DNA of 64,000 bases from an uncultured Actinomycetota bacterium (GCA_963738895.1 CAVTYN010000014.1:147-64146); one strand, 5' to 3'; positions 115-60,977 are shown, numbered from the stretch's first letter. The notes: generated from the sequence alone by a model not told the origin. Made by a program: numbers and translations.

Positions 115-148
115 CGTGAGACGCCCGGTCGGCACAGGGCGTCTCACG
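115..148 (-). terminator. GC-rich stem-loop overlapping the lhr stop codon
   Basis: Read directly: CGTGAGACGCCC (115-126) and GGGCGTCTCACG (137-148) form a perfect 12-bp stem with a 10-nt loop. The right arm contains the lhr stop (TCA at 144-146 on +). Confidence 0.4.
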
Positions 149-3100
149 GGCGCAGAACGGCACGGCGCGGGCCGGCGAGGAAGCCGGCCTCGACGAGCAG
201 CGGCATGACGTCGCTCTCGGTCACCGGCTCGCCGTCGAAGCGCTCGACCGCGAGCCGCTTCGCCCCACCGCCGCGAACGTACGCGACGAGCGCGTCGAGC
301 GCGGGCCGGAGCCACGTCTCGTCCGGGTCGCGGAGCGGCACGAGCGAGCGCCCGCCGCGCTCGACATAGAGAACAGCCTCGCCGCCGGCGAGCACGACGT
401 GGGCGCCGGCGACTCGCGCCGCCCGCGCGCCGGACCGCTTCGGCCACGGCAGCGCCGCCCCGTAGGGCTGCGCCGGGTCGGCAGCCGGAAGCACGACCGG
501 CCGGGCGTCCTCCTCCGCCTCGCGCGGCTCGCGGAGCCGCTCGACCGCGCCGCCGAGCGCGAACTGCGCTCCGCCGAGGCCCTCGACGAAGTAGCCGCGG
601 CGGCAGAGCCCGAGCGTCTCGAGCGCGCGCAGCTCGGCGTACACCGCGCCGTAGCCGCCCGGGATGCCCTCGGCGCGGACGCCGTCGCGCGTGACGATCC
701 CGTGCCGCTCGAGCAGGAGCTCGGCGAGCGCGCGGCGCTCGGGCGTGCCCGCGAAGAGCCGCTCGGTGAGCGACCAGCGGCCCTGCGTGGCGGTCGGTCC
801 GGCTCCGCGCGAGCGCGAGAAGCGCCGCGGCCGCCGCTCGGGCCTCGGAACGCCGTTTCGCCGCCCGGCGCGGAGCGGCGTCCAGGCGTCGTTCGTCACC
901 TCGCCGGCCCAGACGAGGTCCCAGAGCGCCGGCAGCGCCTCGTCAGGGGCGAGGCCGGTCTCGTCGAGCAGGTCGTGCCAGAAGAGCGCGCCCGGTGAGC
1001 GCCCCGCGGATCGCGTCGTGAGCCTCGCCCTCGGGGGCGGCGGCGGCCGGCACCGAGCCGAGCGCCGCCGCGTCCTCGCGGAAGTAGACGGCGACGCGGT
1101 CGAGCCCGGCTCCGACCCAGACGACCTCGCCGCTCGCGCAGAGCGAGTCGAGCTGCTCGGGCCGGTAGCCCGGTACGCGGCGCGGCAGGAGCTCGCTCTC
1201 CCAGAGCCCGACCGGCAGCGCGAGCGCCTGAAGCGGAACGAGCGCTTCGCGCAGCGAAGCCCTGCGGTCGATCCCGTGCCAGGAGGGCAGGAAGCGCGCG
1301 AGCGCCTGCGGGCTCGACCGGCTCGACCTCGCGGCGAAGCGCGGCGAGCGAGGCGCGCCGCAGCCGGCGCAGCACGTCGGGGTCGCACCACTCGCGCTCG
1401 GTGCCGCCGGGGCGGAGCTCGCCGCGGACGAGCAGCTCCTCGCGCTCGAGCTCGGCGAGCAGCCCCGCGAGGTCGCGGCCGAACCGCTCCTCCGCCTCGG
1501 CGGTCGTGAAGGGACCGCGGCCCTTCGCGTAGCGCACCACGAGCTGCCGCAGCGAATCGGGCCCGCCCTCGAGGAACGCCTCGGGCAGCCCGCCCGGCGG
1601 CATCACGCCGAGCGCGTCGCGGTAGCGGCCGGCGTCCTCGGCTGCGATCAGCCGCTCCTCGCCGGCGATGCGCACGAGCAGTGCCCGGCGCTCGGCGAGC
1701 AGCGGCTCCGCCAGCACCGGGTCGTACTCGCCGGGGCGGCGGTCGCCGCGGACGCGGAGCTGGTCGTGGAGCTCGTCGGGCGTCCGCGGCGCGCCCCGGA
1801 GCTGCCGCTCGACCTCGTCGACCGCGTCGGCGTCGAGCAGGTCGCGAAGCTCCTCGCTCCCGAGCAGCTCGCGCAGCAGGTCGCGGTCGAGCGAGAGCGC
1901 CTGGGCGCGGCGCTCGGCGGGCGGCGTGTCGTCCTCGTACATGTACGTCGCGACGTAGTCGAAGAGGAGCGAGGAGCTCATCGGCGAGGCGCTGCCGGTC
2001 TCGACCTCGACGAGGTCGAGGCGGCGCGTCTGGAGGCCGCCGAGCAGCGTGCGCAGCGCCGGCAGGTCGAAGACGTCCTGGAGGCACTCGCGGTAGGTCT
2101 CGAGCACGATCGGGAAGGAGCCGTAGCGGCGGGCGACCTGGAGCAGCGACTGCGCCTTCAGCCGCTGCTGCCAGAGCGGCGTCCGCTGACCGGGGCGGCG
2201 ACGCGGGATCAGGAGCGAGCGGGCGGCGTTCTCGCGGAAGCGGGCGCCGAAGAGCGCGGTCTCGCCGAGCTCGGCGACGACGAGATCCTCGACCTCGGCC
2301 GGATCGAGCGCGAGGTCGTCCGCGCCGGGCGGGACGTCCGCGTCCGGGAAGTGGATCGCGATGCCGTCGTCCGACCAGATCGACTGTGCGTCGAGGCCGA
2401 GCGACTCGCGCAGCCGCGCGGTGATCGCCATCGCCCACGGCGCGTGCACGCGGCCGCCGAAGGGCGTGAGGATGCAGACGCGCCAGTCGCCGATCTCGTC
2501 GCGGAAGCGCTCGACGACGATCGTGCGGTCGGACGGGACGGCGCCGGTCGCGTCGGCCTGGTCGCGCAGGAACGCGAGCAGGTTGCGGGCGGCCCGCTCG
2601 TCGAGCAGGTACTCGTCGCGCAGCCGCGCGAGCGCCGACGCGTCGCCGAGCGCGGAGAGCTCGCGCGAGGCGGCGCCGATCTTCTCGCCGAGCTCGTAGG
2701 GGCGCCCCACTCCCTCGCCCTTCCAGAACGGGACGGCGCCCGGCAGCCCGGGCGCCGGCGAGACGAGCACGCGGTCGCGGGTGATCTCCTCGATCCGCCA
2801 GGTCGAGGCGCCGAGCAGGAACGTCTGGCCGGCGCGGGCCTCGTAGACCATCTCCTCGTCGAGCTCGCCGACCCGGCCGCCGCCGTCGACGAGGAAGACG
2901 CCGAAGAGCCCGCGGTCGGGGATCGTGCCGGCGTTCGTGACGGCGAGCCGGCGCGCACCGTCGCGGGCGCGGATCGTGCCGCCGGTGCGGTCCCAGACGA
3001 TGCGCGGCCGCAGCTCGGCGAACTCGTCGGACGGGTAGCGGCCGGCGAGCATGTCGAGCACGTTCTCGAGCTGGACGCGCGAGAGGTCGGCGAACGGGTA

Positions 3101-4426
3101 GGCGCGGCGGACGAGGTCGTGGAGCTCGTCGACCGCGATCTCCTCGTCGACGGCGATCGCGACGATCTGCTGCGCGAGCACGTCGAGCGGGTTGCGCGGG
3201 ATCTTCGTCTCCTCGATCTCGCCGCTCCGCATCGCGCGGGCGACGACGGCCGACTCGAGCAGGTCGGCGCGGAACTTCGGGAAGATGCGCCCCTTCGAGA
3301 CGGCGCCCAGCTCGTGGCCGGCGCGGCCGATGCGCTGGAGCCCGCGGGCGACCGACTTCGGCGACTCGACCTGGATCACGAGGTCGACCGCGCCCATGTC
3401 GATCCCGAGCTCGAGCGACGAGGTCGCGACGAGGCACGGGATCCGGCCGGCCTTCAGGTCCTCCTCGATCACGACGCGCTGCTCGCGGGCGAGGCTGCCG
3501 TGATGGGCACGCGCGATCTCGCGCTCGGCGAGCTCGTTCAGCCGCAGCGCGAGGCGCTCGGCGAGGCGGCGGTTGTTGACGAAGACGATCGTCGAGCGGT
3601 GCTGCCTCGACGAGCTGCAGCAGCTCGGGGTACATCGACGGCCAGATCGACGCGATCCCCTGCTCGCGCGCTGCCGTCGGTGACCTCGCCCTCGGCGAGG
3701 ACCGGGTGGCGAGAGCGCGCAGTCGATCCGAGCTCGCGGAGGTCCTCGACCGGGACGACGACCTGGAGGTCGAGCTCCTTGCGGGTGCCGGCGTCGACGA
3801 GCTCGATCGGGCGGCCGCCGGAGACGAAGCGGCCGATCTCCTCGAGCGGCCGCTGGGTCGCCGAGAGCCCGATGCCGCTGGATCCGGGCGGTCGACGAGC
3901 CGCTGCAGCCGCTCGACCGAGAGCGCGAGATGCGCGCCGCGCTTGGTGCCGGCGACGGCGTGCACCTCGTCGAGGATCAGCGTCTCGACGCCGCGCAGGC
4001 GTCTCGCGCGCGGCCGAGGTGAGCATCAGGTAGAGCGACTCGGGCGTCGTGATCAGGATGTCCGGCGGCTCCTTGACGAGCTCGCGGCGCTCCTTCGCCG
4101 ACGTGTCGCCGGTGCGGACGCCGACGCGCAGGCTCGACTCGAGGCCCGCGAGCGGGCCGCGGAGGTTGCGCTCGATGTCGTAGTTGAGCGCCTTGAGCGG
4201 CGAGACGTAGAGCACGCGCAGCCCCACGCCCGGGCGTCGCGTTCAGGCGGTCGATCGCGTAGAGGAACGCGGTGAGCGTCTTGCCCGAGCCGGTCGGCGC
4301 CTGGATCAGGACGTCGCCGCCGGCGCGATCGCCGGCCAGCCCGAGCACCTGCGCGGGCGTCGGCCCGGCGAACGCGCCCTCGAACCAGCTCCGCGTCGCC
4401 GGCGAGAAGGCGGCGAGCGGGTCCAC
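144..4426 (-). pseudogene. lhr: Lhr-family ATP-dependent DEAD/DEAH helicase, frameshifted (pseudogene or assembly indels)
   Basis: ORF-track fragments concatenate into one Lhr. GTG at 4426 gives VDPLAAFSPATRSWFEGAF, followed by Walker A LIQAPTGSGKT (frame of 3977..5002). Next come VLYVSPLKALNYDIERNL and ILITTPESLY (3538..4227), then HAVAGTKRGAHLALSVERL (144..3965 frame). Helicase-C LVATSSLELGIDMGAVDLVIQ and the long Lhr core lie in 896..3472. The C-terminal domain runs LFWHDLLDETGL...VEAGFLAGPRRAVLRP*. At least 7 frame changes, near 4227, 3990, 3885, 3650, 3600, 1300 and 1000. Confidence 0.9.
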
Positions 4427-4483
4427 CCGCCCAGGGTATCGCCCGCACGCTCGTCGAACAAGTGTTCGTCGAGTACGATTTCG

Positions 4484-5029
4484 GTGCCCGACGCGCTGTA
4501 CTTCACCGACGACCAGGCCGCGCAACGAGCTGCTCGCGCAGGATCCGTTCGCGCTCCTGATGGGCTTCGCGATCGACCAGCAGGTGCCGGTGCAGAAGGC
4601 CTTCGCCGGGCCGCTCGCGCTGAAGCAGCGCGTCGGGACGCTCGACCCGCGGAAGCTCGCGAAGCTCGACCTCGAGCCGGCGTTCCGGGAGAAGCCGGCG
4701 ATCCATCGCTTCCCCGGCTCGATGGCCGAGCGCGTGCCGCGAGCTCGCGGCGGTCGTCGCGGAGGACTACGGCGGCGACGCCTCTCGGATCTGGAACGAG
4801 GCGACCGACTCGGCCGACCTGAAGAAGCGACTCGGCTCGCTCCCCGGCTTCGGCCCGATGAAGGTGACGGCGCTCGCATCGGTGCTCGCCTACCGCTTCG
4901 GCGTCGAGAGCGCCGAAGCCGCTCTCCCCCGACCACGCCTGCCTCGGCAAGGTCGACTCCCCGCAGGCGCTCGCCGACTACCAGGCCGCCAAGCGGGCCC
5001 ACAAGCGCAGCTTCAAACAGGAGGCGTGA
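4484..5029 (+). pseudogene. HhH-GPD-type base-excision DNA repair protein, frameshifted
   Basis: The stitched protein reads MPDALYFTDDQAA | NELLAQDPFALLMGFAIDQQVPVQKAFAGPLALKQRVGTLDP..AIHRFPGSMAERV | ELAAVVAEDYGGDASRIWNEATDSADLKKRLGSLPGFGPMKVTALASVLAYRFGV | ..DSPQALADYQAAKRAHKRSFKQEA*. There are three frame changes of the same sign (~4520, ~4742, ~4928). The stop TGA at 5027-5029 is in the same frame as the ATG at 4484. Confidence 0.8.
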
Positions 5030-5113: not shown

Positions 5114-5815
5114 TTGTTCAGCCAATCCGCAGACATCTACGACGCGGTCTACTCCTACAAGGACTACATCGCTGAGGCGGAGCGCGTCCACGCGCTGATC
5201 GAGGAGCGCACACCAGGGGCCTCCACCCTCCTCGACGTCGCCTGCGGCACCGGCAAGCACCTCGAGCAGCTCGCCCGCTGGTACACGGTGCAGGGCCTCG
5301 ACCTGAACGAGGACTTCGTCGCCATCGCCCGCGACCGGCTCGGCGACCGCGCGCACATCCACCTCGCCGACATGACCTCGTTCGACTTCGCGCGCACCTT
5401 CGGCGCGGTCACGTGCCTGTTCAGCTCGATCGCCTATGTCGGCAGCGAGGAACGCCTCGACGCGGCGCTCGCCGCGATGGCACGGCACCTCGAGCCGGGC
5501 GGGACGCTCGTGCTCGAACCGTGGATAACGCCCGAGAACTGGATCGTCGGCCGGCCCTACCTGATCACGGTCGACGAGCCGCACCGAAAGATCGCGCGAG
5601 CGAGCGTCGCGGGCCGCGAGGGGGACATCTCGACCCTGCAGTTCGACTACCTCGTGGCGACACCCGGGGGCACCCGCCACTTCACCGAGCTGCACGAGGC
5701 GGCGCTCTTCACCGACGAGCAGTACCGGCAGGCGTTCGAGCGAGCCGGCCTCTCGGTCGAGCTCGACGAGGAGGGCCTGATCGGCCGCGGCCTGTACGTC
5801 GGTCAGGCCGGCTGA
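5114..5815 (+). CDS. Class I SAM-dependent methyltransferase, TylM1/DesVI-like (sugar N,N-dimethyltransferase family)
   Basis: Intact 233-aa ORF with a TTG start. It has ADIYDAVYSYKDYIAEAE, the SAM motif LLDVACGTGKHL, then VTCLFSSIAYV and EPW. It aligns along its whole length with TylM1 as I remember it. Confidence 0.8.
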   Translation: MFSQSADIYDAVYSYKDYIAEAERVHALIEERTPGASTLLDVACGTGKHLEQLARWYTVQGLDLNEDFVAIARDRLGDRAHIHLADMTSFDFARTFGAVTCLFSSIAYVGSEERLDAALAAMARHLEPGGTLVLEPWITPENWIVGRPYLITVDEPHRKIARASVAGREGDISTLQFDYLVATPGGTRHFTELHEAALFTDEQYRQAFERAGLSVELDEEGLIGRGLYVGQAG

Positions 5816-6702
5816 CGCCGCAGCTCGCGCAAAGGCGGCCCGAGCGCCTGGCCGCCTCGCAGCACCGGTGCGAACAGGTCGCCGAACCGCTCCACGCGGT
5901 CGAGCGCGACGGCCATGGAGAAGTCACGCGGCCGGATGTCCTCGGTGAGCTCCTCCCAGGTGAGCGGGGTCGAGACGGGCGCGCCGGGCTTCGGCCTCAC
6001 CGAGTACACCGACGCAATCGTCTTCCCGTGCCCGTTCTGGCGATGGTCGACGAGCACGCCCGTCCGCTTCCGCTTCAGCCACTCGGTCGTGAGGAGCCCG
6101 GGATGCTCGGCTTCGAGACCGCGCGACAGGAGCTCCGCGAACTCGTAGGTCTCGTCGTACCCGGAGCGCCGCGTGATCGGAAGCAGGACGTGGATGCCGT
6201 CGGCGCCGCTCGTCTTCACGTACGAGGCGAGCCCGAGGTCCTCGAGCGCCCCTCGGATCAGGTGCGCGACCCGGACCGCCATCGGGAACCCGTCTGCCGA
6301 GTCGGGCGGGTCGAGGTCGAACACGACGAAGTCCGGGCGGTCCGGCTTGTCGACGCGCGAGTACCAGGCGTTCATGTCGATGCAGTGCATCTGAACCATC
6401 CAGAGCAGCGCGTCGACGGTACCGACGAGCGGGAAGTCGACAAGCCGCGGGCCTCCCCCGCGCGGGTGCGTCAGGAACTGCCTTGTCGGGATCCACGCCG
6501 GCATCCCCTTCGGGGCCTGCTTCTGGAAGAACGCCCCGCCCGCCAGGCCTTCCCGCCACCGTTTCATCGTGAACGGACGATCACGCAGGTGCGGCAGGAT
6601 CGCGGGCGCGACCGCCTCGTAGTAGTCGAAGAGGTCGCCCTTCGTGATCCCGTCGTCGGGGAAGAGGACACGGTCACGGCTCGAGAGCTGTACCCGTGTC
6701 AT
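5803..6702 (-). CDS. Stand-alone LigD polymerase/primase (PolDom, Prim-Pol) domain protein
   Basis: The internal ATG at 6702 of ORF 5803..7179 gives MTRVQLSSRDRVLFPDDGITKGDLFDYYEAVAP..FFQKQAP..VVFDLDP..YVKTSGADGIHVLLP..LVDHRQNGHGKTIASVYSVRP, which is typical of the LigD polymerase domain. The start overlaps the acyl-CoA dehydrogenase stop (ATGA at 6699-6702). Confidence 0.88.
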   Translation of the reverse strand: MTRVQLSSRDRVLFPDDGITKGDLFDYYEAVAPAILPHLRDRPFTMKRWREGLAGGAFFQKQAPKGMPAWIPTRQFLTHPRGGGPRLVDFPLVGTVDALLWMVQMHCIDMNAWYSRVDKPDRPDFVVFDLDPPDSADGFPMAVRVAHLIRGALEDLGLASYVKTSGADGIHVLLPITRRSGYDETYEFAELLSRGLEAEHPGLLTTEWLKRKRTGVLVDHRQNGHGKTIASVYSVRPKPGAPVSTPLTWEELTEDIRPRDFSMAVALDRVERFGDLFAPVLRGGQALGPPLRELRRQPA

Positions 6703-7871
6703 GCGAACGGCGAGCCTCGCACCTCGCGCAGCATCTCGCGGGCGATCACGAGGCGCTGGATCTGGTTCGTGCCCTCGTAGATCTGGGTGACCTTCGCGTC
6801 GCGCATCATCCTCTCGACCGGGTATTCGCTCATGTAGCCGTACCCGCCGAGCACCTGGACGGCATCCGTCGTCACCGCCATCGCGGTGTCCGAGCAGAAG
6901 AGCTTCGTGATCGCCGAGAGCTTCGTCAGCTCGGGACCGTCTGCTCCGGAGTCGATCAGCGCACCGCAGCGGTAGAGCAGCCCGCGTGCAGCCTCGCACC
7001 GAGTCTCCATGTCGGCGAGCATCCCGGCGACGAGCTGATGGTTCGCGATCGGCTCGTCCATCGTCTCTCGCGTTCGCGCGTACCCGAGCGCGTACTCCGT
7101 CGCCCCCTCGGCGATGCCGAGCGCCTGGGCTGCGATACCAGGCCGCGAGCGGTCGAGGATCCTCATCGCGAGCCGCCACCCCTCGCCTTCTTCCCCGAGC
7201 CGGTTCTCGGCCGGCACACGGCAGCCGTCGAAGACCACCTCACCGGTCGTGGAACCTCTGATCCCCATCTTGGGCTCGATCCGCCCGATCTCGAGCCCCG
7301 GCGAATCGGCCTCGACTGTGAACGCCGAGATCCCGCGGCGGCCGGCGGCAGGGTCGGTCCTGGCGAAGACGACATAGATGCCGGCCACGCCCGCATTCGT
7401 GATGAACCGCTTCGAGCCGTCGAGGACGTAGGTGTCTTTCTCCCGCCGTGCCTCCGTTCGGATCGCCGCCGCGTCCGAGCCGGCCCCCGGCTCGGTGAGC
7501 GCGTAGGCCGCGAGCGTCTCCCCGGAGGCGATCCGGGGCAGCAACCGGTGCTTCTGCTCCTCGCTCCCCGCCAGCCTGAGCCCGAGCGCACCGAGCTCCT
7601 GCACCGCGAGGATGAGGCCGCTCGTCGCGCAGACCTTCGACACCTCCTCGACGGAGACGAGGGTCTGGAGAGCGCTGGCGCCGACGCCTCCATACTCCTC
7701 GTCCGCGAGCGTCCCGAAGATGCCGTTCTCCCGGAAGAGATCGACGACGTCCCACGGGAACTCCGCAGAGGAGTCGATCTCGGCCGCCCGCCGCGCAATC
7801 CGGCCGCGGGCAATGGCGCGCACTAGGTCCCGGATCTCCTGCTGCTCAGGCGTGAGGCCATCGTGCAGCAC
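6699..7871 (-). CDS. Acyl-CoA dehydrogenase
   Basis: Intact 390-aa ORF with AYALTEPGAGSDAAAI, KRFITNAGVAGIYVVFA and QVLGGYGYMSEYPVERMMRDAKVTQIYEGTNQIQRLVIAR. Confidence 0.95.
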   Translation of the reverse strand: MLHDGLTPEQQEIRDLVRAIARGRIARRAAEIDSSAEFPWDVVDLFRENGIFGTLADEEYGGVGASALQTLVSVEEVSKVCATSGLILAVQELGALGLRLAGSEEQKHRLLPRIASGETLAAYALTEPGAGSDAAAIRTEARREKDTYVLDGSKRFITNAGVAGIYVVFARTDPAAGRRGISAFTVEADSPGLEIGRIEPKMGIRGSTTGEVVFDGCRVPAENRLGEEGEGWRLAMRILDRSRPGIAAQALGIAEGATEYALGYARTRETMDEPIANHQLVAGMLADMETRCEAARGLLYRCGALIDSGADGPELTKLSAITKLFCSDTAMAVTTDAVQVLGGYGYMSEYPVERMMRDAKVTQIYEGTNQIQRLVIAREMLREVRGSPFA

Positions 7872-8129
7872 AGCTCAAGCCTACCCCGGGGCCTGCCGAT
7901 ATCCGGGTCGTGGTCCAGTTGATGCTCGCTGCAAGCGCCCTCGTGGTCGTCGCCTTCGCCGTCGTCGCTGCGTTCGTCCTCGTCGGCGCCCGGTACTAGA
8001 CCGCTCACGAGAGACGCTCGAGACGCCGCTTCAGCGCTTCGTCGGCGGCTGCGAACCGCGCCGCGGGTGAGATAGTTTCGGTGTGGTGGACGAGATCGCC
8101 AGGCAGGCTCTGAAGCTCCCGTACGAGCC

Positions 8130-9650
8130 ATGATCCTCGAGAACTGCCTCGTCCGGACCATGGATCCCCGGGTTCCGACGCAGCGGGCGCTGGCAATAGC
8201 CGGCGACCGCGTCGCCGGCGGCGTCGGCGTCCACGAGACGGCGCTCGCCTCGCCCGACGTCGTCGACCTCGGGGGCAGAGTCGTCCTCCCGGGATTCACC
8301 GACGCGCACGTGCACTTCCCGACCTGGGCGCTCTCGCGTTCCGACGTCGCGCTCGACGGATGCGCGTCACTCGGGGAGGCCCTCGAGCGGATCCGGGCCG
8401 CTGGACGACCCACGGGCGGGGTCATCCGCGGCTACGGGTGGCGCAGCGGCGACTGGACGCCCGCCCTCGAGCCCACTGCGGCGCATCTCGACGCCGTCAC
8501 AGGCTCGACGCCGGCGGCGATGATCGCGAAGGACTACCACTCGCTGTGGCTCAACTCGGCGGCGCTCGCGCTCGCGAACGGCGACCTCGAGGTCGGGGGC
8601 GGCGTCGTCGAGCGGGACGCCGCGAGAGCCCCGACCGGCGTGCTGCGCGAGGAGGCGGCTTGGAGATTCAAGGAGCGGTACCTCTCCGTGCCCGACGACG
8701 CCTACGTCGAGGCGATGCGGGCCGGGCTGAAGGTCGCCGCTTCCCGCGGGGTGACGGCGGTGCACGACAAGGACGGCTGGCTCGGAGCGCTTCGCATGTG
8801 GCGGCAGCTGGAGCGCGAGGAGAGGCTCACGGTACGGGTGTGGCAGTCGGCACCCGCCGATCAGGTCGAGGGACTGCGTGCGGTCGGGGTGCCGTCGGGC
8901 CTCGGGAGCCCGTTCCTGCGGATCGGCTACCTGAAGGCGTTCATGGACGGCACGCTCGGCTCGCGGACCGCCCTCATGCTCGACGGCTCGGGCGTGCGGA
9001 TCACGAGCGGCGAGGAGCTCGCCGAGATCGTCCTCGCCGGAGCCGAGGCCGGCTTCCCGGTCGCCGTCCACGCGATCGGCGACGGCGCCAATCGCGAGGC
9101 GCTCGACGCGTTCGAGCGCACGCGGCCTGTGTGGGAGCCACTCGGGCTGCGCCACCGGATCGAGCACGCGCAGCTCTTGTCGCCGGCAGACGTGCCTCGG
9201 TTCGCCGGGCTCGGTATCGCCTGCTCGGTGCAGTTCTCGCATGCCCCGTCCGACCGAGATCTCGCCGAGCGGTTCTGGGCGGGCAAGCTCGACGGCGCGT
9301 ACGCCTACCGCTCGCTCGTCGACTCGGGCGCGGTGGTCGCGAACGGCTCCGACGCGCCGATCGAGGAGCTCGACCCGCTCGCCGGCATCCGCGCGGGCGT
9401 TCGCCGCACGATCGATGAGCGCGGCGCGTGGCACCCGGAGCAGTCGCTGACGGTGCAGCAGGCGTTCGAGGCGACCTGCGTCACGCCGGCGTGGCTCTCC
9501 GGCGACGAGCGCCGACGGGGCCGGCTCATCCCCGGGCAGGCGTCGGACCTCGTCGTGCTCGATCGCGACCCGTGGGCCGACCTCGACGCCGAGGTCGTCG
9601 CAACGATGGTCGCGGGCCGGTGGGTGCACAACCCGCCGCCCTGGGATTGA
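8130..9650 (+). CDS. Amidohydrolase family protein (Amidohydro_3 / YtcJ-like metal-dependent hydrolase)
   Basis: Intact 506-aa ORF with the metal motif LPGFTDAHVHF, then KAFMDGTLGSRTA, VAVHAIGDGAN and ANGSDAPIEELDP. Confidence 0.88.
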   Translation: MILENCLVRTMDPRVPTQRALAIAGDRVAGGVGVHETALASPDVVDLGGRVVLPGFTDAHVHFPTWALSRSDVALDGCASLGEALERIRAAGRPTGGVIRGYGWRSGDWTPALEPTAAHLDAVTGSTPAAMIAKDYHSLWLNSAALALANGDLEVGGGVVERDAARAPTGVLREEAAWRFKERYLSVPDDAYVEAMRAGLKVAASRGVTAVHDKDGWLGALRMWRQLEREERLTVRVWQSAPADQVEGLRAVGVPSGLGSPFLRIGYLKAFMDGTLGSRTALMLDGSGVRITSGEELAEIVLAGAEAGFPVAVHAIGDGANREALDAFERTRPVWEPLGLRHRIEHAQLLSPADVPRFAGLGIACSVQFSHAPSDRDLAERFWAGKLDGAYAYRSLVDSGAVVANGSDAPIEELDPLAGIRAGVRRTIDERGAWHPEQSLTVQQAFEATCVTPAWLSGDERRRGRLIPGQASDLVVLDRDPWADLDAEVVATMVAGRWVHNPPPWD

Positions 9651-9668
9651 CGGCGGGCGTAGCCTCGC

Positions 9669-10825: not shown

Positions 10826-10828
10826 CAG

Positions 10829-11173: not shown

Positions 11174-11183
11174 GGCGCAATCA

Positions 11184-11201
11184 TATTCCGATATCGGCAT
11201 A
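11184..11201. promoter_or_regulatory. Imperfect palindrome, candidate ArsR autoregulatory operator
   Basis: TATTCCGATATCGGCATA has a perfect 10-bp core CCGATATCGG (11188-11197) and is 16/18 symmetric. It sits 11-28 nt upstream of the preferred arsR ATG. Confidence 0.4.
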
Positions 11202-11300
11202 CGTCAAGCCGTGGAGAGAAAATTCTGGGTTGAGGCCCTCGACCAGCCGTTTGAGGTGTGACGAAGTTGATGGACTACAGCATTTGCGTAGCATTACACC

Positions 11301-47463: not shown

Positions 47464-47467
47464 GCGT

Positions 47468-51314: not shown

Positions 51315-51329
51315 GTGGACGCCATAGCC

Positions 51330-52097: not shown

Positions 52098-52114
52098 CCG
52101 CTCGACGTACGCGC

Positions 52115-53208
52115 TCAGAGCGACCGGTAGGCGATCGGGATGCGGCTGCCCTCGTCGGAGGAGCGCAGCGATCGCGTCGCAGACCTCGGTGGCGCGGTAG
52201 CCGTCCTCGAACGTCGCGCAGTACGGAGCGACGTCCGTCTCGCCGGCGATCGCTCGAGATCACGCGCGCGTACTCGAGCGTGAAGGTGTCGCCCCAGCCG
52301 ATCAGGTGCCCGGGCGGCCACCAGTCGCCGGTGACCCGCTCCGTGCGGAAGGGGCCGCCGTCCGAGACCTGGAGCTCGTCGAAGCGCTCCATGTCGAAGG
52401 CGATCGAGCCCTCGGAGCCGTTGATCTCGCACGTCGGTCTGGTTGACGCGGCCGCGCGCGAGCCGCGTCGCCTCGAGCGTGCCGATCGCGCCGTTCGCGA
52501 GCTCGATCGAGGCCGTGAACGCGTCGTCGACCTCGTGCCCGGGCACGTAGGTGCGCAACGATCGCGGAGACCGTCTCGATCTCGCCGACGAGGAACCGGG
52601 CCAGGTCGATGATGTGCGTGCCGAGGTCGCCGATCGCTCCCGTCGCCGCCTGGGCGCGGTCGAAGCGCCAGATGCTCGTGTCCGCGTCCCAGCCCCACGA
52701 CTGCAGGTAGCGCGCGCGGAAGTGGACGATCTCGCCGACCGCGCCCGCCTCGAGCAGCTCGCGGGCGCGCCGGATCGCCGGGACGAAGCGGTAGTTGAAG
52801 CCGCAGGCGTGCACGCGTCCCGGCGCCGTCGCCGCCTGCCAGATCCGGTACGACTCGTCGGCGTCGAGGCCGAGCGGCTTCTCGCAGAGGACGTGCTTGC
52901 CCGCCTCGAGCGCGGCGATCGACGGCTCGGCGTGGATCGCGTTCGGGCCGCCGTTGTCGAAGAGCTCGATCCGGTCGTCGGCGACCTGCTCGCGCCAGTC
53001 GGTCGACGGCCTCGGCCCAGCCGAAGCGCGCCGCGACCGCCTCGAGCGCCTCGCGGTTGCGGCCGGAGATCGAGACGAGCTCGGGCAGGAGCGGCGGGTC
53101 GAGCTCCCGGAGCGCGCGGAGCGCCCGCGAGTGCGCCTTGCCCATGAAGGCGTAGCCGAGCATGCCGACGCCGATCTGCACGGGCTGCCCGTTCCCCACG
53201 TGGGGCAT
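52115..53208 (-). pseudogene. Gfo/Idh/MocA-family oxidoreductase (second copy), multiply frameshifted
   Basis: The ATG at 53208 gives MPHVGNGQPVQIGVGMLGYAFMGKAHS..ISGRN. Later fragments are [107 protein letters not shown] and EINGSEGSIAFDMERFDELQV. At least 5 frame changes. Confidence 0.85.
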
Positions 53209-53209
53209 G

Positions 53210-53609
53210 TTACGGGCCCGTCGAGAGCCCGGCAGACTCGATCGCCGACGGCTGCGAGCGCGGCGTCGTCCGCGCCGGGCAGCCCGCTCACGCCGACGGC
53301 GCCGACGCTGACGTCCGCCGTCGAACGCCGCGACGCCGCCGAGGAAGAACGTGAAGAACGGGTCGAAGCTCGCCCGCTCGACCGGGTCGTCTCGCACCTT
53401 CTCGGCGAGCTCCTCGGTCGTGCGCGCGTCGCTGCGGGCCGCGGTGTAGGCCTTGCGCTGCGCGTTCAGCCGCGTGTCCGGCGCGGCGCCGTCCATCGTC
53501 GCCGCGGCGACGACCTCGCCGTGGTCGTCGGCGACGAACACCGAGACCGGGCCCGGGCGCCGCGGAGATCACGTGCTCGACGATCTGGAGGGCGCTGTCG
53601 CAGCTGCAT
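53210..53609 (-). pseudogene. GlcG/HbpS-like (DUF336) heme-binding protein, frameshifted
   Basis: The ATG at 53609 is followed by ..DSALQIVEHVISAAPGP, VFVADDHGEVVAAATMDGAAPDTRLNAQRKAYTAARS.. and VGAVGVSGLPGADDAALAAV.., in three frames. The TAA at 53210-53212 lies 1 nt before the next ATG. Confidence 0.65.
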
Positions 53610-53646
53610 CTGCGCGCATTCTGGCGGTCAGCGACGTGGGCGTACG

Positions 53647-54640
53647 ATGCTCCGTGCGCAGCGCGCGTAGCGGCCACACACTCGCTCCGCATCGCCGGCC
53701 GCTCGTATCCGGTGATCTTGCCGTCGCCGAAGGACCCGCGCCTCCACGTCTCGGCGACGTTCCTCGTCCTGTACGTGCTCGGGATGACCCAGTTCCACTT
53801 CCGGCTCTCGTTCCCGCAGATCGTCGATCGTCGATCCTCACCTGCGCGCGTGATCGAGCTCGTCGTCACGTTCCGGCAGAAGCGGATGATCATCTGGCCG
53901 GCGAGCGCGATGCTGACCGGCAACGGGATCGCGTTCATCATGCGGATCCCCGGGACGCAGCACGGCGACTGGTGGTCGTTCGAACGGCGTCTGGATCTAC
54001 GCGGCGATCGGCCGCCGTCGCGATGGCGTCGAAGTACCTGATCCAGTTCCGGGGCCGGCACGTCTTCAACCCGTCGAACTTCGCGCTCGTGCTCACGTTC
54101 GTGATCCTCGGCTCGACCCGGGTGGAGCCGCTGCAGTTCTGGTGGGGCCCGCTGTCGCCGGCGCTCGTGATCGTGCTGCTCGTGATCGTCACCGGCGCGC
54201 TGCTCGTGCTGCAGCCGGGTCGGGCATGCTCGCGGTCGCCGTGATCTTCTGGTTCACGTTCGCGAGCGCGCTCGGCATCCTCGCCCTGAGCGGCCATGCG
54301 TTCTCCGCGAACTGGCATCTCGGGCCCGGTCGCGGACTACTACTTCTGGAAGGTGCTCATCCTCTCGCCGGAGGTGTTCATCTTCCTCTGCGTTCATGAT
54401 CACCGACCCGAGGACGACGCCGGAGACGGCGCGCGGGCGGCGGATCTACGCGGTCGCGATCGGCCTCCTCGGCGCGCTGCTGATCGCCCCGATGCAGACG
54501 CGAGTACTGGGCGAAGGTGGCGCTGCTCGCGTCGCTGACGATCGTCTGCGCCGCGCGGCCGCTCATCATCCTCGCCCGGGAGGCGCTCGAGCGGCGCGAG
54601 CGGCGCCGGGCCGAGCGGCCTCGCCGCCGGCGCTCGCAGG
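53647..54640 (+). pseudogene. RnfD/NqrB-like polytopic membrane protein of the type annotated 'UnbU', multiply frameshifted
   Basis: The fragments are ILPSPKDPRLHVSATFLVLYVLGMTQF, WPASAMLTGNGIAFIMR, MASKYLIQFRGRHVFNPSNFALVLTFVILG..LQFWWGPLSP, GPVADYYFWKVLILSPEVFIF, FMITDPRTTPETARGRRIYAVAIGLLGALLIAPMQT and VALLASLTIVCAARPLIIL. Both ends are approximate. I recall the UnbU naming from memory. Confidence 0.6.
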
Positions 54641-55190
54641 CTCGGCCTCCTCGCCGTGCCGGCGCGGCGGCGTTCGCCGCGCTCATCGTCGTCGCCGGCA
54701 GCCCGGCCCGCTCGGTCGCCGGGCCTCTCCGGCAGCAGCGCTCGCGAGCGACGTCTCGCGTCACGATCGAGCACACGCCGAACGTCGTCTCGATCACGCC
54801 GCAGACTCGGACGGCAGATCGCAGGCGACGCGTCGCCGACCTGGGCTCGTCGAACGCGCTCGGCAAGCGCGACGCGACCAGGCGGCGGCGCGCGAGCGGG
54901 CCTACCTCGCCGCGCTCAAGGCGCAGATCGCGAGGCCGTCGGCCGGCCGATCGTCGTCCCGAGCTACCACGTCACGCGGTCGACCTGCGGCTGCTGCAGG
55001 CCGTCGATCAGGCGCCGCCGACGGTCGTCGCGACGCTCACGGGCAGGTGACGCCGCTGACCTACCCGGCGGCTCGTCGACCGCAGAGCGGCGCGGCGACG
55101 TCGTTCAAGCATGTCTTCGACCTGGCGCTGACGAACGGCCGCTTCCTGATCATCGGCGAGGGCGCGACGCACCGCGCTGCCGGCGGCGCC
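54640..55190 (+). pseudogene. Unresolved coding stretch, either a membrane-anchored hypothetical protein or the N-terminus of the CRTAC1 gene; frames scrambled
   Basis: Protein-like fragments appear in all three forward frames: AAAFAALIVVAGSP, VTIEHTPNVVSITPQT, RERAYLAALKAQIA, GRPIVVPSYHVTR, VDLRLLQAVDQAPPTVVATLTG and QVTPLTYPA..SFKHVFDLALTNGRFLIIGEG. I recognise no family. Confidence 0.3.
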
Positions 55191-56790
55191 CGCGCCGCAG
55201 CACCACGTACGCGACCCAGCCGAAGGGCGTCGGCGCCTTCTCGAAGCTCCGGCTCGTGAACGTCGCGCCGAAGCTCGGGCTCGACTTCCAGCAGGGCGCG
55301 TTCCGCTACTCGATGGCCTACGACCAGCAGGCGATGATGGGCGGCGGCGTCTGCTGGCTCGACTACAACAACGACGGCTGGCTCGACCTCTTCGCCGTGA
55401 ACTCGTACGCCGACGTCGACATGCCCGAGTGGGCGAGCCACGGCGGCCTGCCGCAGAGCGCGCTCTTCCGGAACGTCCACGGGAAGTTCGTGAACGTCAG
55501 CAAGGACGTCGCACGCCGGCATCCGCGTGAAGGGCACCGGCTGCGCCGCGGCCGACCTGAACGGCGACGGCTACACCGACCTCGTCGTCACGACGGCGAC
55601 GGGCGTCGAGATCCTGTGGAACAACGGCAACGGCACCTTCACGCCGCAGGCGCTCGCGGCGCCGTACGGCTGGTACTCGGGCGCCGCCGTCGCGGACGTG
55701 AACGGCGACGGCGGCCCGACGTCTTCGTCGCCGGGCTACACGAACATGGCGGCCCGATCCCCGGCTCGATCGCCGGCTTCCCGACCAACCACGAGGGCGT
55801 CCGCGACCTGCTCTACCTCAACGAGGGCCGGCGACCGGTTCAAGGAGGTCGGCGTCGCAGGCGGGTCTCGAGTCGTCGCACTTCCGGCACGGGCTCGGCG
55901 CGACCTTCACCGACGTGAACGGCGACGGCCGCCCGGATCTCTACGTCGCGAACGACGAGGATCCGAACGACCTCTACATCAACGAGCCCGGCGGGCCGCT
56001 CGGCTTCCACTTCGTCGACGAGGCGAAGTCCTACGGCGTCGACGACCCGAACGCCGGGATGGGCGTCGCCGAGGCCGACTTCAACGGCGACGGCCGCCCC
56101 GACCTCTTCGTCACGAACTCGCGCGGCCAGCCGCACGCCGCCTACGAGAGCAAGATCCTGCCGAAGCGGCGAGACCGGCTACCGGAACGTGACGGCGATG
56201 TTCGCGAAGGCGCTCGACCGCAAGCTCGACGGTCGGCTGGGGCGACTGCGTTCGTCGACCTCGCGAACAACGGCAACCTCGACCTGATCCTCGCCAACGG
56301 CGCGATCCCGGTCACGAACCTGAAGCAGGACACCGAGCCGCGTCCAGGTGCTCCAGGGCCTCGGCGGCGGCAGGTTCACGAACGCGAGCGGGATCATCGA
56401 CCCGAACGGGATGCCGAGGATCATCGGCCGCGGCCTCGCCGCCGCCGACTTCGCCAACGACGGGCGCATGGCGATCGCGATCAACACGATCGGCGGCCCG
56501 CTCGTGCTGCTCCAGGACACGGGCCCGGTCGGCCACTGGCTCGAGGTGTCGCTGAAGGGCTTCCAGGCGGGCGCGGTGCTCACCGCCACGCTCCCGAACG
56601 GCCGCAAGCTCGTGCAGGAGCTCCACGCCGGCAGCAGCTACCTCTCGTCGGCCGACCCGCGCGCGCACTTCGGGCTCGGCGGCGCGACGAAGGTGGCGAG
56701 ACTCACGATCCGCTGGCCCGACGGCCGGTGTCGCACCTCGCGAACCTCGCCGCCGACCGGATCGTCACGGTCGCGCCGCCCCGGGACTGA
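55190..56790 (+). pseudogene. CRTAC1-family protein (FG-GAP/VCBS repeats plus ASPIC/UnbV C-terminal domain), heavily frameshifted
   Basis: The fragments are GGGVCWLDYNNDGWLDLFAVNSY, GCAAADLNGDGYTDLVV..ILWNNGNGTF, AVADVNGDG..PDVFVAG, GLGATFTDVNGDGRPDLYVANDEDPNDLYINE, GMGVAEADFNGDGRPDLFVTNS, VGWGD/AFVDLANNGNLDLILANG and GLAAADFANDGRMAIAI. The ASPIC/UnbV part reads GHWLEVSLKG..ELHAGSSYLSSADPRAHFGLGGATKVARLTIRWPDGR. At least 8 frame changes. The 5' end is approximate. Confidence 0.8.
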
Positions 56791-56817
56791 CACCCGGGGA
56801 TCGATCCCTTCGCTCCG

Positions 56818-57162
56818 CTACTCGGACCCGGAGTTGTCGACGATCTGGGCGATCTCGACGAACTCGATCGTCGGCTCGACGCCGTACAGACCGGCCACTC
56901 GCTCCCGAAGCTCGTCGGAGAAGAAGAGCACCGCTGCGTCCTTCGACTCCCAGACGTAGAAGTTCGTCGCACGTTGCTTCTCCTCGTCGAACGTGAAGAA
57001 CTTGAAGCGCAAGCCCGGCATCCCCTCGAACATCCCGCGGGCGTTGTCGGCAACATCGAGCACGCGTGAGCGATCGAACGTGCCGTCGTACTCGAACGTG
57101 ACGTTGACTCCGATCACGGTCCTCCTGAGTGGCGGGGTGCGCCCCTCAGCCGCGAGACCCAC
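56818..57162 (-). CDS. YdhR-like dimeric alpha-beta-barrel (putative monooxygenase) protein
   Basis: Intact ORF reading VNVTFEYDG..MPGLRFKFFTFDEEKQRATNFYVWESKDAAVLFFSDEL..YGVEPTIEFVEI. The start may be the internal GTG at 57117. Confidence 0.6.
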   Translation of the reverse strand: MGLAAEGRTPPLRRTVIGVNVTFEYDGTFDRSRVLDVADNARGMFEGMPGLRFKFFTFDEEKQRATNFYVWESKDAAVLFFSDELRERVAGLYGVEPTIEFVEIAQIVDNSGSE

Positions 57163-57360: not shown

Positions 57361-58619
57361 CTAGCGCCCCGAGCGGACCTGCAGGCGGCGCGCGATCGTG
57401 TCGAGCGTGACGGCGACGAGGAGGATGAGCCCCGTCACGATGTAGATCGTCCCGTTCGAGTAGCCGGCGGTGTTGAGGCCGTTCGCGACGGTCGCGATCA
57501 CGAGCGACCCGAGGAGCGCGCCGCGTACCTCGCCACGGCCGCCGAAGAGGCTGACGCCGCCGATGACCGCCGCGGCGATCGCGTTCAGGAGCAGCGTCCC
57601 CGGCGGGAACGTCAGCGCGACCGAGTTCACGAACGCGGCGAGCATGATGCCGCCGATCGCCGCGGTGGCGCTCGAGATCACGAAGACGAGCACCCGGATC
57701 CGCCCGACGTTGATCCCGGCGCGCCGCGCCGCCTCGGCGTTCCCGCCGACCGCGTAGACGTGCCGCCCGAAGGTCGTCCGCTTGGCGAGGAAGGTCAGGA
57801 TGACCAGGAAGACCACCATGATCACGCCGGCCAGCGGCAGGCCGAGGTGCCGGCCCTGGATGATGCCGTGGTTGCAGATCGCGACGGTGCCGAACGACGC
57901 GATCGCGACGCCGGCCAGCTTGAGCAGCGACCTTCAACCAGTTCTTCGAGGCGGCCTGCCTGCCATGCGCGTTGCGCAGCGGCAACAGCACGGTCAGCGC
58001 GTAGAGGCCCGTGACGATGGCCGCGATCAGCCAGCCGGCCTCCTGCGAGAAGTAGTAGTTCGCGGTGTAGTTGATCCAGCGGTCCTGGATGATGATCGAG
58101 CCCGGGACCTCGAGCCTCCCGAGGATCACGCCCTGCCAGATCAGGTAGCCCGCAAGCGTGACGACGAACGATGGGACGCCGACGTAGGCCACGATCGAGC
58201 CCTGCCCGGCGCCGATGACGCGCGCAGACCAGAACGGCGATCACGATCGCGATCAGGCCGTTCAGCTGGTGCCCGCTGCCCGGTAACTGGAGCTCCGCCA
58301 CGACGAGCGCGCCGATGCCCGCGACATAGCCGATCGAGAGGTCGATCTCCCCCAGGAGCAGCACGAAGACGACGCCGTAGGCCAGCATCGTCGTGCCGGC
58401 CATCTGGATGATGATGTTGCCGAAGTTGACGGCGGTGAAGAAGTTCGTCGCCTTGAAGCCGAAGAAGACGACGATGACGATCTCGCCGACGACGATCGGG
58501 AAGATCCCGAGGTTCCCCGACCGAATGTTGGTGGTGATGCGCTTGAGAAGGCCTGGAGCCTCCTCCGCGGCTTCCTGGCGGCGCCGGAGGCTCGGTCGAC
58601 CGCTTCGGCGGTGCGTCAC
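57361..58619 (-). pseudogene. xylH: Xylose-type sugar ABC transporter permease (XylH-like), frameshifted
   Basis: The GTG at 58619 is followed by ..[54 protein letters not shown]. After a shift the protein reads [23 protein letters not shown]. After further shifts it reads MVVFLVILTFLAKRTTFGRHVYAVGGNAEAARRAGINV..LFGGRG. At least 3 frame changes. Confidence 0.85.
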
Positions 58620-59406
58620 GCGGATGGCTCCTGCGGTCGACGGGATGCCGGCGACCTTCGTCGGGACGCCCGCGGTGATCGCGGCGACGACCTCCTGCTG
58701 GGTCGTCTTCTCGCGCTCGAAGACGCCGACGTTGCGCCCGAGCCGGAGGACCGTGATCCGGTTCGCCGTCTCGAAGACGTCGTGGAGGTTGTGGGAGATG
58801 ATCACCACGCCGAGCCCCTGCTCGCCGAGGCGCCGCACGAGCGCGAGCACCTGCTCGGTCTGCGCGACACCGAGCGCCGCGGTCGGCTCGTCGAGGATCA
58901 CGAGCTTCGAGTTCCACTGCACGGCCTTCGCGACCGCGACCGACTGCCGCTGGCCGCCCGAGAGCGTCGCGACCGGCTGGCGGATCGACCTGATCGTCGT
59001 GACGGCCAGCGACTTCAGCGTCGAGGCCGTGTGCTCTGCCATCGTCGGCCTCGTCGAGGACCTGCCAGCGGTTCGCCTCGCGGCCGAGGTACATGTTCTG
59101 GACGACGTCGAGGTTGTCGCAGAGTGCGAGATCCTGGTAGACGACCTCGATCCCGAGCCGCGCCGCGTCCTTCGGCCCGTGGATGTTGACCTCGCTCGCC
59201 CTCGAAGAGGATCTCGCCCGCTGTCGGCGGCATGCGTGCCCGCCACGCACTTGACGAGCGTGGACTTGCCGGCGCCGTTGTCGCCGACGAGCGCCATCAC
59301 CTCGCCGCGTCCGGACCTCGAAGTCGACGTCGGTGAGCGCCTGGACCGAGCCGAAGGACTTCGTGATGTTGCGAAGCTCGAGAAGCGGGGTGCTGGCGTC
59401 GGTCAT
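58616..59406 (-). pseudogene. xylG: Sugar ABC transporter ATP-binding protein (single-NBD XylG-like), frameshifted
   Basis: [31 protein letters not shown] is followed by [58 protein letters not shown] and [24 protein letters not shown]. At least 4 frame changes. The 3' end is unresolved: no in-frame stop precedes the permease GTG, and a TGA one frame off lies at 58616-58618. Confidence 0.85.
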
Positions 59407-59488
59407 CTAGGGGCGATAGTAAAGCGCAAGAAAGAGCCGGTGGAGGCGTCACGAGGACGCCTCCACCGGTGAGCTCGCCTATTCCTGT

Positions 59489-60548
59489 CTAGCAGTACTG
59501 CTTGTAGTCGCCGACGCAGACCTCGCTCTTCTTCAGGAAGCCCTGCGTGAAGAGCTGCGTGTAGTTCGCCTTCGTGATCCACGTGACGGGAAGCGTGATC
59601 GTCGCTTCCTTCTTCTTGCCGTTCAGCCGGAACGTGTTGGTGTGCGGCACCGTGCCCTTGAGGAGCGCGACCGCGGCAGCAGCCGTGGCGTTCGCCTCGG
59701 TCGGCACGTACTTGTAGACCGTGCCGGTCTGCCAGCCGGCGAGGATGTACTGGATGCCCTGAGCCGTCGCGTCCTGACCGCTCAGCGGGAGCGGCTTCAG
59801 GCCCTTCGCCTTCAGGTCGGCGATGACCGCGCCCGCGATGTTGTCATTCGCGGCGATCACGCCGTCGATCTTGTTGTTCGTCTTGACGAGCATCTGCTGG
59901 AAGATGGTCGCCGCGTTGTTCGCGTCCCAGTCGGGAACGAACTGCTGCGGGCCCTTCACGATCGGGCCGCTTCGCGAAGAGCGGGTTGAGGACGGCGTCG
60001 TTGCCGCTCTTGAACCAGAACGCGTTCTGGTCGGTCGGGCCGCCCCAGAGCTCGGCGACGGTGCCGCCGTGGTAGGTGCCGGTCTTCTTCATCGCGGCGA
60101 GAACGCCCGTTGCCTGCGCCTGTCCGACCGACTTGCCGTCGAAGGTGACGTAGACCGAGGCGGTGCCGCCGAGCACCTGGCGGTCGTAGTCGATCGCGTG
60201 ACCGCCGGCCGCCGTGAACAGCTTCTCGATCGCCGCTGCAGAGCCGTTGTCGAGCGCGGTCTCGATGACCACCTTGGCGCCGGCCGCCAGGCACGCCTGA
60301 GCCTGCGCCTTCTGCTTCGTCGGGTCGTTGAGCGCGTTGTTGATCGAGGCCGTCACCCCGGCCTTCTTGAAGGCCGCGGTGAACGCGGGTGCGTCGAACT
60401 GCACCCAGCGGACCGACGACTTGGTGTCCGGCAGCAGGACGCAGACCTGCACGTTCGCGGCGCGTGACGCTCCCGCGCCTCCGACGGCCACAACGGCCGC
60501 AGCGGAGACGAGGAACAGACCCGTCGCCCTAAGAATGTTTTTCCTCAC
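59489..60548 (-). pseudogene. xylF: Sugar ABC transporter substrate-binding protein (XylF-like), one frameshift
   Basis: The GTG at 60548 follows AAGGAG. The signal peptide is MRKNILRATGLFLVSAAAVVAVGG. The body reads VCVLLPDTKSSVRWVQFD.., and after a shift near 59960 it continues KGPQQFVPDWDANNAATIFQQML..GVIAANDNIAGAVIADLK. Confidence 0.85.
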
Positions 60549-60671
60549 GTGCTTCTCCTTCTATCTTCATGTCGCGGGTTGTCGGTGATCGCTGGCTCGT
60601 CACCGAGCGCGCTGCACGCGATTTGCGTAGCACTCTCGGGCGCCGGGGTATACAGAAACTTCTCGCAAATA

Positions 60672-60703
60672 TCACGTGGAGTCAAATCCAAGCGTCCACG
60701 TGA
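60672..60703. promoter_or_regulatory. 9-bp inverted repeat with a 14-nt spacer upstream of xylF (candidate operator)
   Basis: TCACGTGGA (60672-60680) and TCCACGTGA (60695-60703) are perfect arms. They lie in the relatively AT-rich region 125-155 nt upstream of the xylF start. Confidence 0.3.
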
Positions 60704-60756
60704 GCCGTTCGGTCACTTCTCCTCCTTGGCTTTCGGCCACTCGCAGTATTAGACGT

Positions 60757-60977
60757 TCATCGGACCACGGTGGTTGCCAGATCAGTGCTTGCCGTGTCGT
60801 CGTGCAGCGCGGCCAGGCCGGCCGAGTGAAGTCGATCGGTGTCACCGATCACGAGCGCGAGAGCGCCGAGTACCTCGCGATCTCACCGCGGCCGGCGGTC
60901 CGCCGTTGCCGCAGAGCATCGATCACACGCAGCCAGTTCGGCTCACCCAGAGCCTCCAGCGATCCCGCAGTCGCCAT
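60757..60977 (-). pseudogene. Truncated N-terminal HTH remnant of a ROK/XylR-like repressor
   Basis: My minus-strand translation starts at the ATG at 60977 and reads MATAGSLEALGEPNWLRVIDALRQRRTAGRGEIARYSALSRS* (stop at 60849-60851). One frame over it continues LVIGDTDRLHSAGLAALHDD..VVR*. This resembles the winged-helix N-terminus of ROK repressors. No sugar-kinase-like body follows. Confidence 0.35.

Follow-up and report, generated by a model that had tools for sequence, protein, structure and literature searches.

Block-wise frame changes in a 64-kb soil actinobacterial sequence probably reflect consensus errors of a long-read metagenome assembly

Intact and interrupted genes along the window

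The window is a stretch of 64,000 nucleotides (nt) from an uncultured Actinomycetota bacterium (GCA_963738895.1 CAVTYN010000014.1:147-64146), with a G+C content of about 70% and the kind of genes usual for the Thermoleophilia/Gaiellaceae group of soil Actinomycetota. Along it, genes that are open from end to end lie next to genes that read as their family protein only after one or more changes of reading frame. A reading made from the sequence alone had estimated that about half of the genes are broken, in agreement with our count of about 26 of about 59 loci.

Frame changes were called without a reference from codon log-odds, trained on long open reading frames (ORFs) with high G+C at third codon positions and decoded with a seven-state Viterbi model (six frames plus non-coding, stops forbidden). 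The resulting path makes 97 same-strand frame switches. A switch counts as a frameshift call if the upstream frame meets no stop codon within 45 nt; 75 of them qualify, corresponding to 1.27 calls per kb of coding sequence. Long single-frame segments occupy 5.1-11.2, 16.2-24.5, 43.1-46.2 and 61-64 kb, and many short same-strand segments are found at 0.2-5.0, 14.8-15.8, 29-31, 36-42.9, 50.6-56.8 and 57.9-59.4 kb. Each segment was then read in its own frame and the pieces were joined and scanned against Pfam and NCBIfam. The stitched translations give full-length matches that run collinearly across several frame segments: four for the DEAD domain of an Lhr-type helicase, DEDD_Tnp_IS110, AP_endonuc_2 and FGGY_N, two to four for the GFO_IDH_MocA domains, three for FGGY_C, Glyoxalase and the HhH-GPD family TIGR03252, and two for adh_short, ABC_tran and thymidylate synthase. 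Every domain of the clean blocks is confined to one segment.

Relatives of the window were gathered by comparing the intact sugar-binding protein encoded at 45112-46233 (-) with species-representative genomes, resulting in 80 loci. The closest one, L001 (CAVRQF010000006.1, from the metagenome-assembled genome (MAG) MFD04967.bin.2.33), is syntenic with the window over 33.6-56.8 kb at 94-95% nucleotide identity. Gaps from pairwise comparison with 70 related loci were clustered, and an indel was considered window-specific when 60% or more of the relatives aligned at the site (2-36 in number) lacked it. Of 104 such events, 95 have a length that is not a multiple of three and are thus frame-changing; 94 frame-changing events lie within 33.6-59.4 kb alone. 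The closest genome for 0-33 kb is about 85% identical, and indel positions there rest on the Viterbi path and Pfam. The window as a whole holds at least about 115 frame-changing indels: the many frame changes counted by eye in the sequence-only reading stand, while the figure of 80-90 was too low. Window-specific 'events' at 16313, 16406 and 16696 were discarded as alignments to distant paralogues; the ORF at 16182-17048 is intact.

We aligned genes to their orthologues with a purpose-written protein-to-DNA program that permits frameshifts. Seven genes require 61 frameshifts; at identities of 85.5-95.9%, their 2,849 aligned codons include no in-frame stop, bearing out the earlier impression that the stitched frames are free of stops. 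The gene of about 1050 amino acids (aa) at 53652-56787 needs 31 frameshifts (22 extra and 9 missing nt; 85.5% identity over 1032 residues against the full-length, 1042-aa P0124), xylulokinase 10 (95.2%), GFO oxidoreductases b and a 7 (95.1%) and 5 (92.3%), aldose epimerase 4 (90.3%), the cupin at 38440-38985 3, all of +1 nt (93.3%), and DeoR 1 (95.9%), each with zero stops. Frameshift-aware alignment of fourteen control genes of the clean blocks, including AKR, SBP, ABC ATPase, methyltransferase, LigD, ACAD, amidohydrolase, M20, sigma-70, TPR, MoeZ and CysM, yielded no shift that can be ascribed to the window; ThiS shows one apparent shift, probably located in the L083 reference. Two other approaches were set aside. 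Long antisense ORFs, typical of 70% G+C DNA, confused BLASTX searches against ORFs of related loci, and TBLASTN in its default gapped mode kept to one frame across a whole gene, so that identity came out at 44% and 6 false stops arose.

The frame changes cluster strongly, with a variance-to-mean ratio of 3.6 for frameshift calls per 2-kb bin (p=5e-11) and of 4.6 for relative-based indels per 1-kb bin over 36-60 kb (p=1e-12). Both values support the block-wise, non-Poisson distribution proposed beforehand. The clean blocks were also delimited correctly, and a lesion in a JAB/Mec+ gene lies just past the block border at 24483.

Genes of the indel-rich and clean blocks

The first indel-rich block (36013..42926) contains about 33 frame-changing indels, or about one per 210 nt, which are window-specific relative to 2-26 relatives. 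It encodes a thymidylate-synthase-like protein, GFO oxidoreductase, SDR, cupin, M24 peptidase, xylulokinase, glyoxalase and TIM-barrel isomerase. GFO, cupin and xylulokinase carry 7, 3 and 10 frameshifts at 93-95% identity with no stops, and Pfam domains in the block extend over 2-4 segments. The second block (50600..56831) holds about 55-60 indels and is densest at 53.2-55.2 kb. At about one indel per 105 nt it is denser than the one change per 150-300 nt that had been given for both blocks, a range into which only the first one falls.

The block includes a single large gene (53652..56787, +) for a conserved protein in which an RnfD/NQR2-like membrane domain (PF03116) is fused with FG-GAP/VCBS repeats and UnbV_ASPIC. 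The many shifts described earlier for a 'CRTAC1' gene are real and concern only the C-terminal part of this larger fusion. More than 100 full-length homologues of the fusion are present among the matches listed, those with a named source belonging to Gaiellaceae or Gaiellales, and the L001 copy is split once.

Three same-sign shifts had been reported for a 546-nt HhH-GPD gene. Two genes of this length exist, both with same-sign shifts. The first (4484..5029, +) is an HhH-GPD-type base excision repair gene with +1 shifts, whose TIGR03252 match (E=5e-38; profile 11-179 of 189) is covered across three segments in the frame order +2, +0, +1; judging from the frame of the ORF start, a third shift would lie near 4519. 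The second is the lyxose-isomerase-like cupin of the first block (38440..38985, +; PF07385, E=1.8e-5), which aligns to its L001 orthologue over 179 aa with +1-nt shifts near 38464, 38792 and 38904.

Frame changes affect several further genes. An Lhr-type large helicase (169..4519, -) is one gene in 9 frame segments (8 frame changes) of the Viterbi path, and its stitched translation of 1444 aa contains DEAD, Helicase_C, WH_Lhr, DEAD_assoc and WH2-4_Lhr in collinear order. An IS110-family transposase (14837..15834, -) falls into 6 segments, DEDD_Tnp_IS110 (profile 1-153 of 155) extending over 4 of them and followed by Transposase_20. The JAB/Mec+ gene (24484..24853, +) has one frameshift near 24535 when aligned to the L083 protein (123 aa, 87.8% identity). 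The stretch 26624..33541 (-) is sparsely affected: an NHL-like gene, OppF, OppD and a family-5 solute-binding protein share about 6 frame changes, with calls at 26906, 29828, 30185, 30747, 31178 and 33541 and ABC_tran matches over 2 segments each, and GH1 and OppB are intact. Another sparse stretch (46243..50553) has 8 frame-changing indels, with one shift each in galactokinase and DeoR. Its GalT gene contains a compensating pair, +1 at 48858 and -1 at 48877, that lies 19 nt apart and leaves the ORF open with about 6 codons scrambled; thus genes that look clean can carry errors too. A second sugar ABC transporter (permease, ATPase and binding protein; 57362..60558, -) has about 8 frame changes with calls at 57928-59969, including six indels at 58799-59304 that are window-specific relative to 22-34 relatives; stitched, it matches ABC_tran, BPD_transp_2 and Peripla_BP_4. 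At its edge, ARAGORN called a tRNA-Pyl (anticodon CTA) at 57327-57414 (+). Rfam at gathering score finds no tRNA or other family anywhere in the window, and the high G+C content here probably gave rise to a false ARAGORN call.

Four blocks are clean. The block at 5114..11956 has no frameshift calls, and in alignments with L081 proteins its methyltransferase, LigD PrimPol, ACAD and amidohydrolase need no frame change. The housekeeping block at 16182..24483 (LLM oxidoreductase, membrane protein, M20, sigma-70, TPR, MoeZ, ThiS and CysM) has 0 frameshifts against L083 proteins at 86-95% identity. The sugar ABC transporter at 43123..46233 (-; ATPase, permease and binding protein) shows 0 frameshifts by alignment and 0 private indels among 43 aligned sequences. 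The block at 61059..64000 (CorC/HlyC-type CBS protein, radical SAM protein and LuxR-type response regulator) has long single-frame segments and no frameshift calls.

Two local features were observed in addition. The M20 peptidase retains a conserved N-terminal stretch of 16 residues in frame (20097-20186, -) with a CTG at 20159 and no ATG, GTG or TTG start upstream of 20096, and for that reason the public M20 ORF counts 422 aa against 438-439 aa in homologues. The region 11160-16250 has a lower G+C content (0.65-0.68) and contains a PIN-domain gene, a PD40-repeat fragment, an alpha/beta hydrolase and the IS110 transposase; no coding signal is seen over about 1.1 kb (11943-13024). This region, whose neighbourhood is arranged differently in relatives, is possibly an island of mobile or foreign origin.

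Indels, substitutions and the public record

The indels are almost always 1 nt in size, and the frame-changing events comprise 69 insertions and 25 deletions. We examined three-way nucleotide alignments of the window, L001 and L019. Over 52120-56390, 50 indels are window-specific (34 insertions, 16 deletions) versus 4 L001-specific ones; over 38860-41960 the counts are 20 and 6, and over 43130-46470 no indel is window-specific. L001 reads straight through the broken genes at the same sites, and the three-way alignments reveal no lesion shared with L001 or L019, the closest genome compared being about 95% identical. Signs are clustered, with 24 same-sign runs where 37.7 are expected (p=1.3e-4): the indels at 53.25-54.8 kb are insertions only and are followed by nine consecutive deletions at 54.83-55.08 kb. 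Such runs fit a local bias of few underlying reads. Indel counts also increase with local G+C (rho 0.51, p=0.011).

Substitutions follow a different pattern. The window has 82 specific substitutions versus 246 for L001 over 52120-56390, 42 versus 95 over 38860-41960, and 57 in the clean transporter block, where it has 0 indels. Bins of 500 nt with at least 3 indels contain 9.0 window-specific substitutions compared to 8.0 in indel-free bins, and the correlation between indel density and these substitutions is negligible (rho 0.09). The share of window-specific substitutions at third codon positions is 60-62% in the noisy blocks and 67% in the clean block, and the L001 branch behaves alike. Purifying selection has thus acted on the 'broken' genes along the branch that leads to the window. 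What indel density per 500 nt does follow is the divergence of the relatives, measured as L001-specific (rho 0.82, p=1e-6) or L019-specific substitutions (rho 0.67, p=4e-4). The errors therefore sit where related genomes differ, and the clean stretches are those conserved among relatives.

The lesions can be traced in the public record. The intact M20 ORF at 18828-20096 (P0001) is identical from first to last residue on a 137,147-bp NCBI/ENA contig. The same contig carries exact matches to two products of the frameshifts, namely ORF 56348-56959 (P0243, 203 aa), a C-terminal fragment of the ~1050-aa gene with a read-through tail, and ORF 54396-55259 (P0363, 287 aa), a mostly out-of-frame product of the densest stretch. 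The lesions thus belong to the deposited record. The clusters of P0243 and P0363 have 1 member each, and no second record has either broken fragment.

Most of the close matches are 'MFD' MAGs of the Microflora Danica long-read project (PRJEB58634), which assembled nanopore reads alone with Flye (--meta, --nano-hq) and polished once with Medaka (PMC12313526); the others are short-read MAGs with MEGAHIT or SPAdes contig names. The 46 nanopore MAG loci have 0.293 frameshift calls per kb of coding sequence compared to 0.063 in the 34 short-read loci, a roughly fivefold difference (Mann-Whitney p=1e-4). Three of the nanopore loci resemble the window in rate, with 1.59 (L010), 1.23 (L054) and 1.16 (L062), and are likewise affected block-wise, with clusters at 13.0-18.9 kb in L010, 0.5-6.7 and 15-18.2 kb in L054, and 0.5-9.1 and 17.2-20.7 kb in L062. 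Further clusters lie at 13.3-16.0 kb in L022 and 10.2-13.4 kb in L066, and all five loci come from species representatives of the searched genome collection.

The alignment of 43 sequences covers the conserved permease and binding-protein genes. Natural private indels measure 3, 6, 9 or 24 nt, while private frame-changing indels accumulate in nanopore loci, with six 1-2-nt insertions in 2.1 kb in L066 and two in L019. Of the one-base insertions specific to L019, 10 of 13 are non-homopolymer, and the non-homopolymer, insertion-biased spectrum of the window is common to other MAGs of the same project. Many ENA contigs of tens to hundreds of kb carry pieces of 120-340 aa of the ~1050-aa gene. R10.4 assemblies are described by their developers' benchmark as near-finished at about 40x coverage, with indels fragmenting gene calls at lower values (PMC9262707), and lower-coverage MAGs of the Danish project have reduced coding density (PMC12313526). 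From the window's relatives, its presence in NCBI/ENA and its error signature, we infer that its contig was made from nanopore reads.

The comparison with L001 revealed a separate anomaly. L001 is without five stretches of about 600-760 bp, opposite 37666-38371, 41975-42735, 46477-47198, 48882-49559 and part of 50555-51152 of the window. These stretches are present in the window, L019, L059, L015 and others, and the losses fall inside genes (SDR, TIM-barrel isomerase, galactokinase and GalT). L001 contains no N, hence the missing stretches are not masked; they seem to be an assembly defect of another type, one of L001 and not of the window. We had considered the non-aligning stretches of about 700 bp as insertions or repeats of the window and rejected this, as other relatives have them.

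Origin of the frame changes

Taken together, these results make it very probable that the frame shifts are consensus or polishing errors in a public long-read metagenome contig of a soil actinobacterium (Thermoleophilia/Gaiellaceae-like), most probably a nanopore-only Flye and Medaka assembly, and the affected genes are most likely intact and functional in the organism. Of the candidates named in the sequence-only reading, error-rich stretches of an indel-prone assembly are thereby favoured: the indels are private and of 1 nt, come without extra substitutions, leave codon-position bias untouched, and share their signature with the clade's nanopore MAGs while being rare in short-read ones. Wherever the genomes of co-occurring relatives differ, effective read support would be poor, and the consensus step would leave or create errors of 1 nt there, more commonly insertions than deletions. 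Such stretches may be backed by only a handful of this population's reads, or the reads of several strains may be piled up and mis-aligned. Reads of related populations may add depth in conserved stretches and so yield a well-supported, clean consensus. This contrast in read support would account for the blocks, with read support as the presumed proximate cause.

Several observations weigh against this account or set the window's indels apart from nanopore errors described so far. Insertions outnumber deletions about 3:1, which is unusual for nanopore consensus. The concentration in homopolymers that is the classical nanopore signature, and that the sequence-only reading had proposed to look for, is absent from the window's indels: 50 of the 67 one-base insertions (75%) are unlike both neighbours and 2 of 67 lie in runs of three, whereas a random-insertion model predicts 49-56% singletons. 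(The whole window contains 6 homopolymers of at least 6 nt.) The insertion sites being non-homopolymeric, neither slippage nor the classical homopolymer error applies. Furthermore, the 500-nt bins show no excess of the substitution errors expected if single raw reads carried the consensus, so that plain one-read coverage is not the full explanation. Finally, the errors here form kb-scale blocks following the relatives' divergence, while published accounts (PMC9262707, PMC12313526) concern mainly homopolymer and genome-wide coverage effects.

Within the artefact, the pile-up may consist of mixed strains of 5-15% divergence that were polished together, with majority alleles kept and columns mis-resolved into 1-nt insertions, rather than of too few reads. 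We consider this a real possibility, at somewhat less than an even chance, and as a sub-mechanism it performs as well as low coverage or better. It agrees with the indel density following the divergence among relatives and not the window's own substitutions, and with the threefold deficit of private substitutions in the noisy block of the window relative to L001, as expected of a centroid-like consensus. The single sample MFD04967 yields several related MAGs (L001, L003 and L019), and microdiversity is stressed in the source paper (PMC12313526). Inspection by eye, however, showed no regular pattern of both alleles in tandem at insertion sites, and the same-sign runs fit few biased reads at least as well. 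The scarcity of private substitutions in noisy blocks and the lack of extra ones thus favour mixed strains or a mixture of both causes, while the same-sign runs favour few biased reads.

Could the lesions instead be real? Very recent pseudogenes, or a lineage-specific burst of indels caused by a frameshift mutagen or loss of repair, would explain that the indels are truly in the deposited sequence and clustered. We regard this as very unlikely. Spontaneous mutation in bacteria produces roughly ten or more substitutions per indel, and both natural and repair-deficient indels concentrate in homopolymers. The window has 50 indels to 82 substitutions in its noisiest block and 0 to 57 in the clean one, and its sister genome is intact at the same sites, which speaks against the burst put forward in the sequence-only reading. 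A search for the signature of mismatch-repair deficiency or slippage, that is, indels at homopolymers and short repeats, did not find it in the window; the indels avoid homopolymers. Neither pseudogene decay nor a known mutational spectrum would produce 61 frameshifts over seven genes at a private substitution level of about 1.5-2%, with no substitution excess, no nonsense codon and third-position bias kept. As many as 31 shifts occur in one gene, which a single one would inactivate, the same pattern recurs in unrelated nanopore MAG loci and is rare in short-read loci, and the broken fragments are found in no second record, their clusters being singletons.

Less likely still, the indels would be real products of a very recent, indel-only and mostly inserting process, acting at non-repetitive sites in the variable genome parts of one soil actinobacterial population and preceding substitutions. 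That the sequence is non-natural, with indels added to real DNA or the whole generated by a model, is hardly credible. The inserted bases do look random relative to their neighbours and the changes are almost purely indels, but a public NCBI/ENA contig contains three of the ORFs residue for residue over their full length, including two that frameshifts produced; a real MAG is syntenic with the window over 23 kb at 94-95% identity, and the pattern recurs in other public MAG loci. The least likely cause of all, and practically negligible, is programmed frameshifting or transcriptional slippage: an IS element is among the affected genes and otherwise only the frame changes themselves suggest it, we know of no use of frameshifting by IS110-family transposases, and the shifts are numerous within single genes, of both signs, at non-repetitive sites and conserved at no site in orthologues of close relatives.

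Annotation of the locus calls for frameshift-aware tools, or else the consensus should be polished again. Since the organism itself most likely has intact genes, the biological importance is low. The practical consequences are larger. With ordinary gene callers, about half of the loci would end up as fragments and read-through ORFs; two such products, P0243 and P0363, are already in public protein collections. Pseudogene counts, pangenome and metabolic inference and protein clustering are distorted for users of this record, and the block-wise errors sit where related genomes diverge, which is where comparative studies look. It is conceivable that the window exemplifies an under-described, non-homopolymer and insertion-biased error mode of nanopore-only Flye/Medaka metagenome assemblies that maps to strain-divergent stretches. 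If so, many MAGs now serving as species representatives would be affected.

How does the window compare with known systems? Mycobacterium leprae is an example of a pseudogene-rich genome under reductive evolution. The window resembles such genomes in having about half of its loci interrupted, and differs from them in the absence of nonsense codons, of a relaxed substitution pattern and of larger deletions, in its many shifts per gene and in its intact sisters. It shares with strain-mixture artefacts (chimeric consensus) that noise coincides with divergence among co-occurring relatives and that private substitutions are few there; the tandem-allele footprint expected of these artefacts is not evident. 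With the indel errors of nanopore assemblies, as known from IDEEL-type truncated-protein tests (PMC9262707, PMC12313526), it has in common that 1-nt indels split genes whose stitched protein is normal, that the errors presumably depend on read support, and that nanopore-only MAGs from the same clade and project often carry them.

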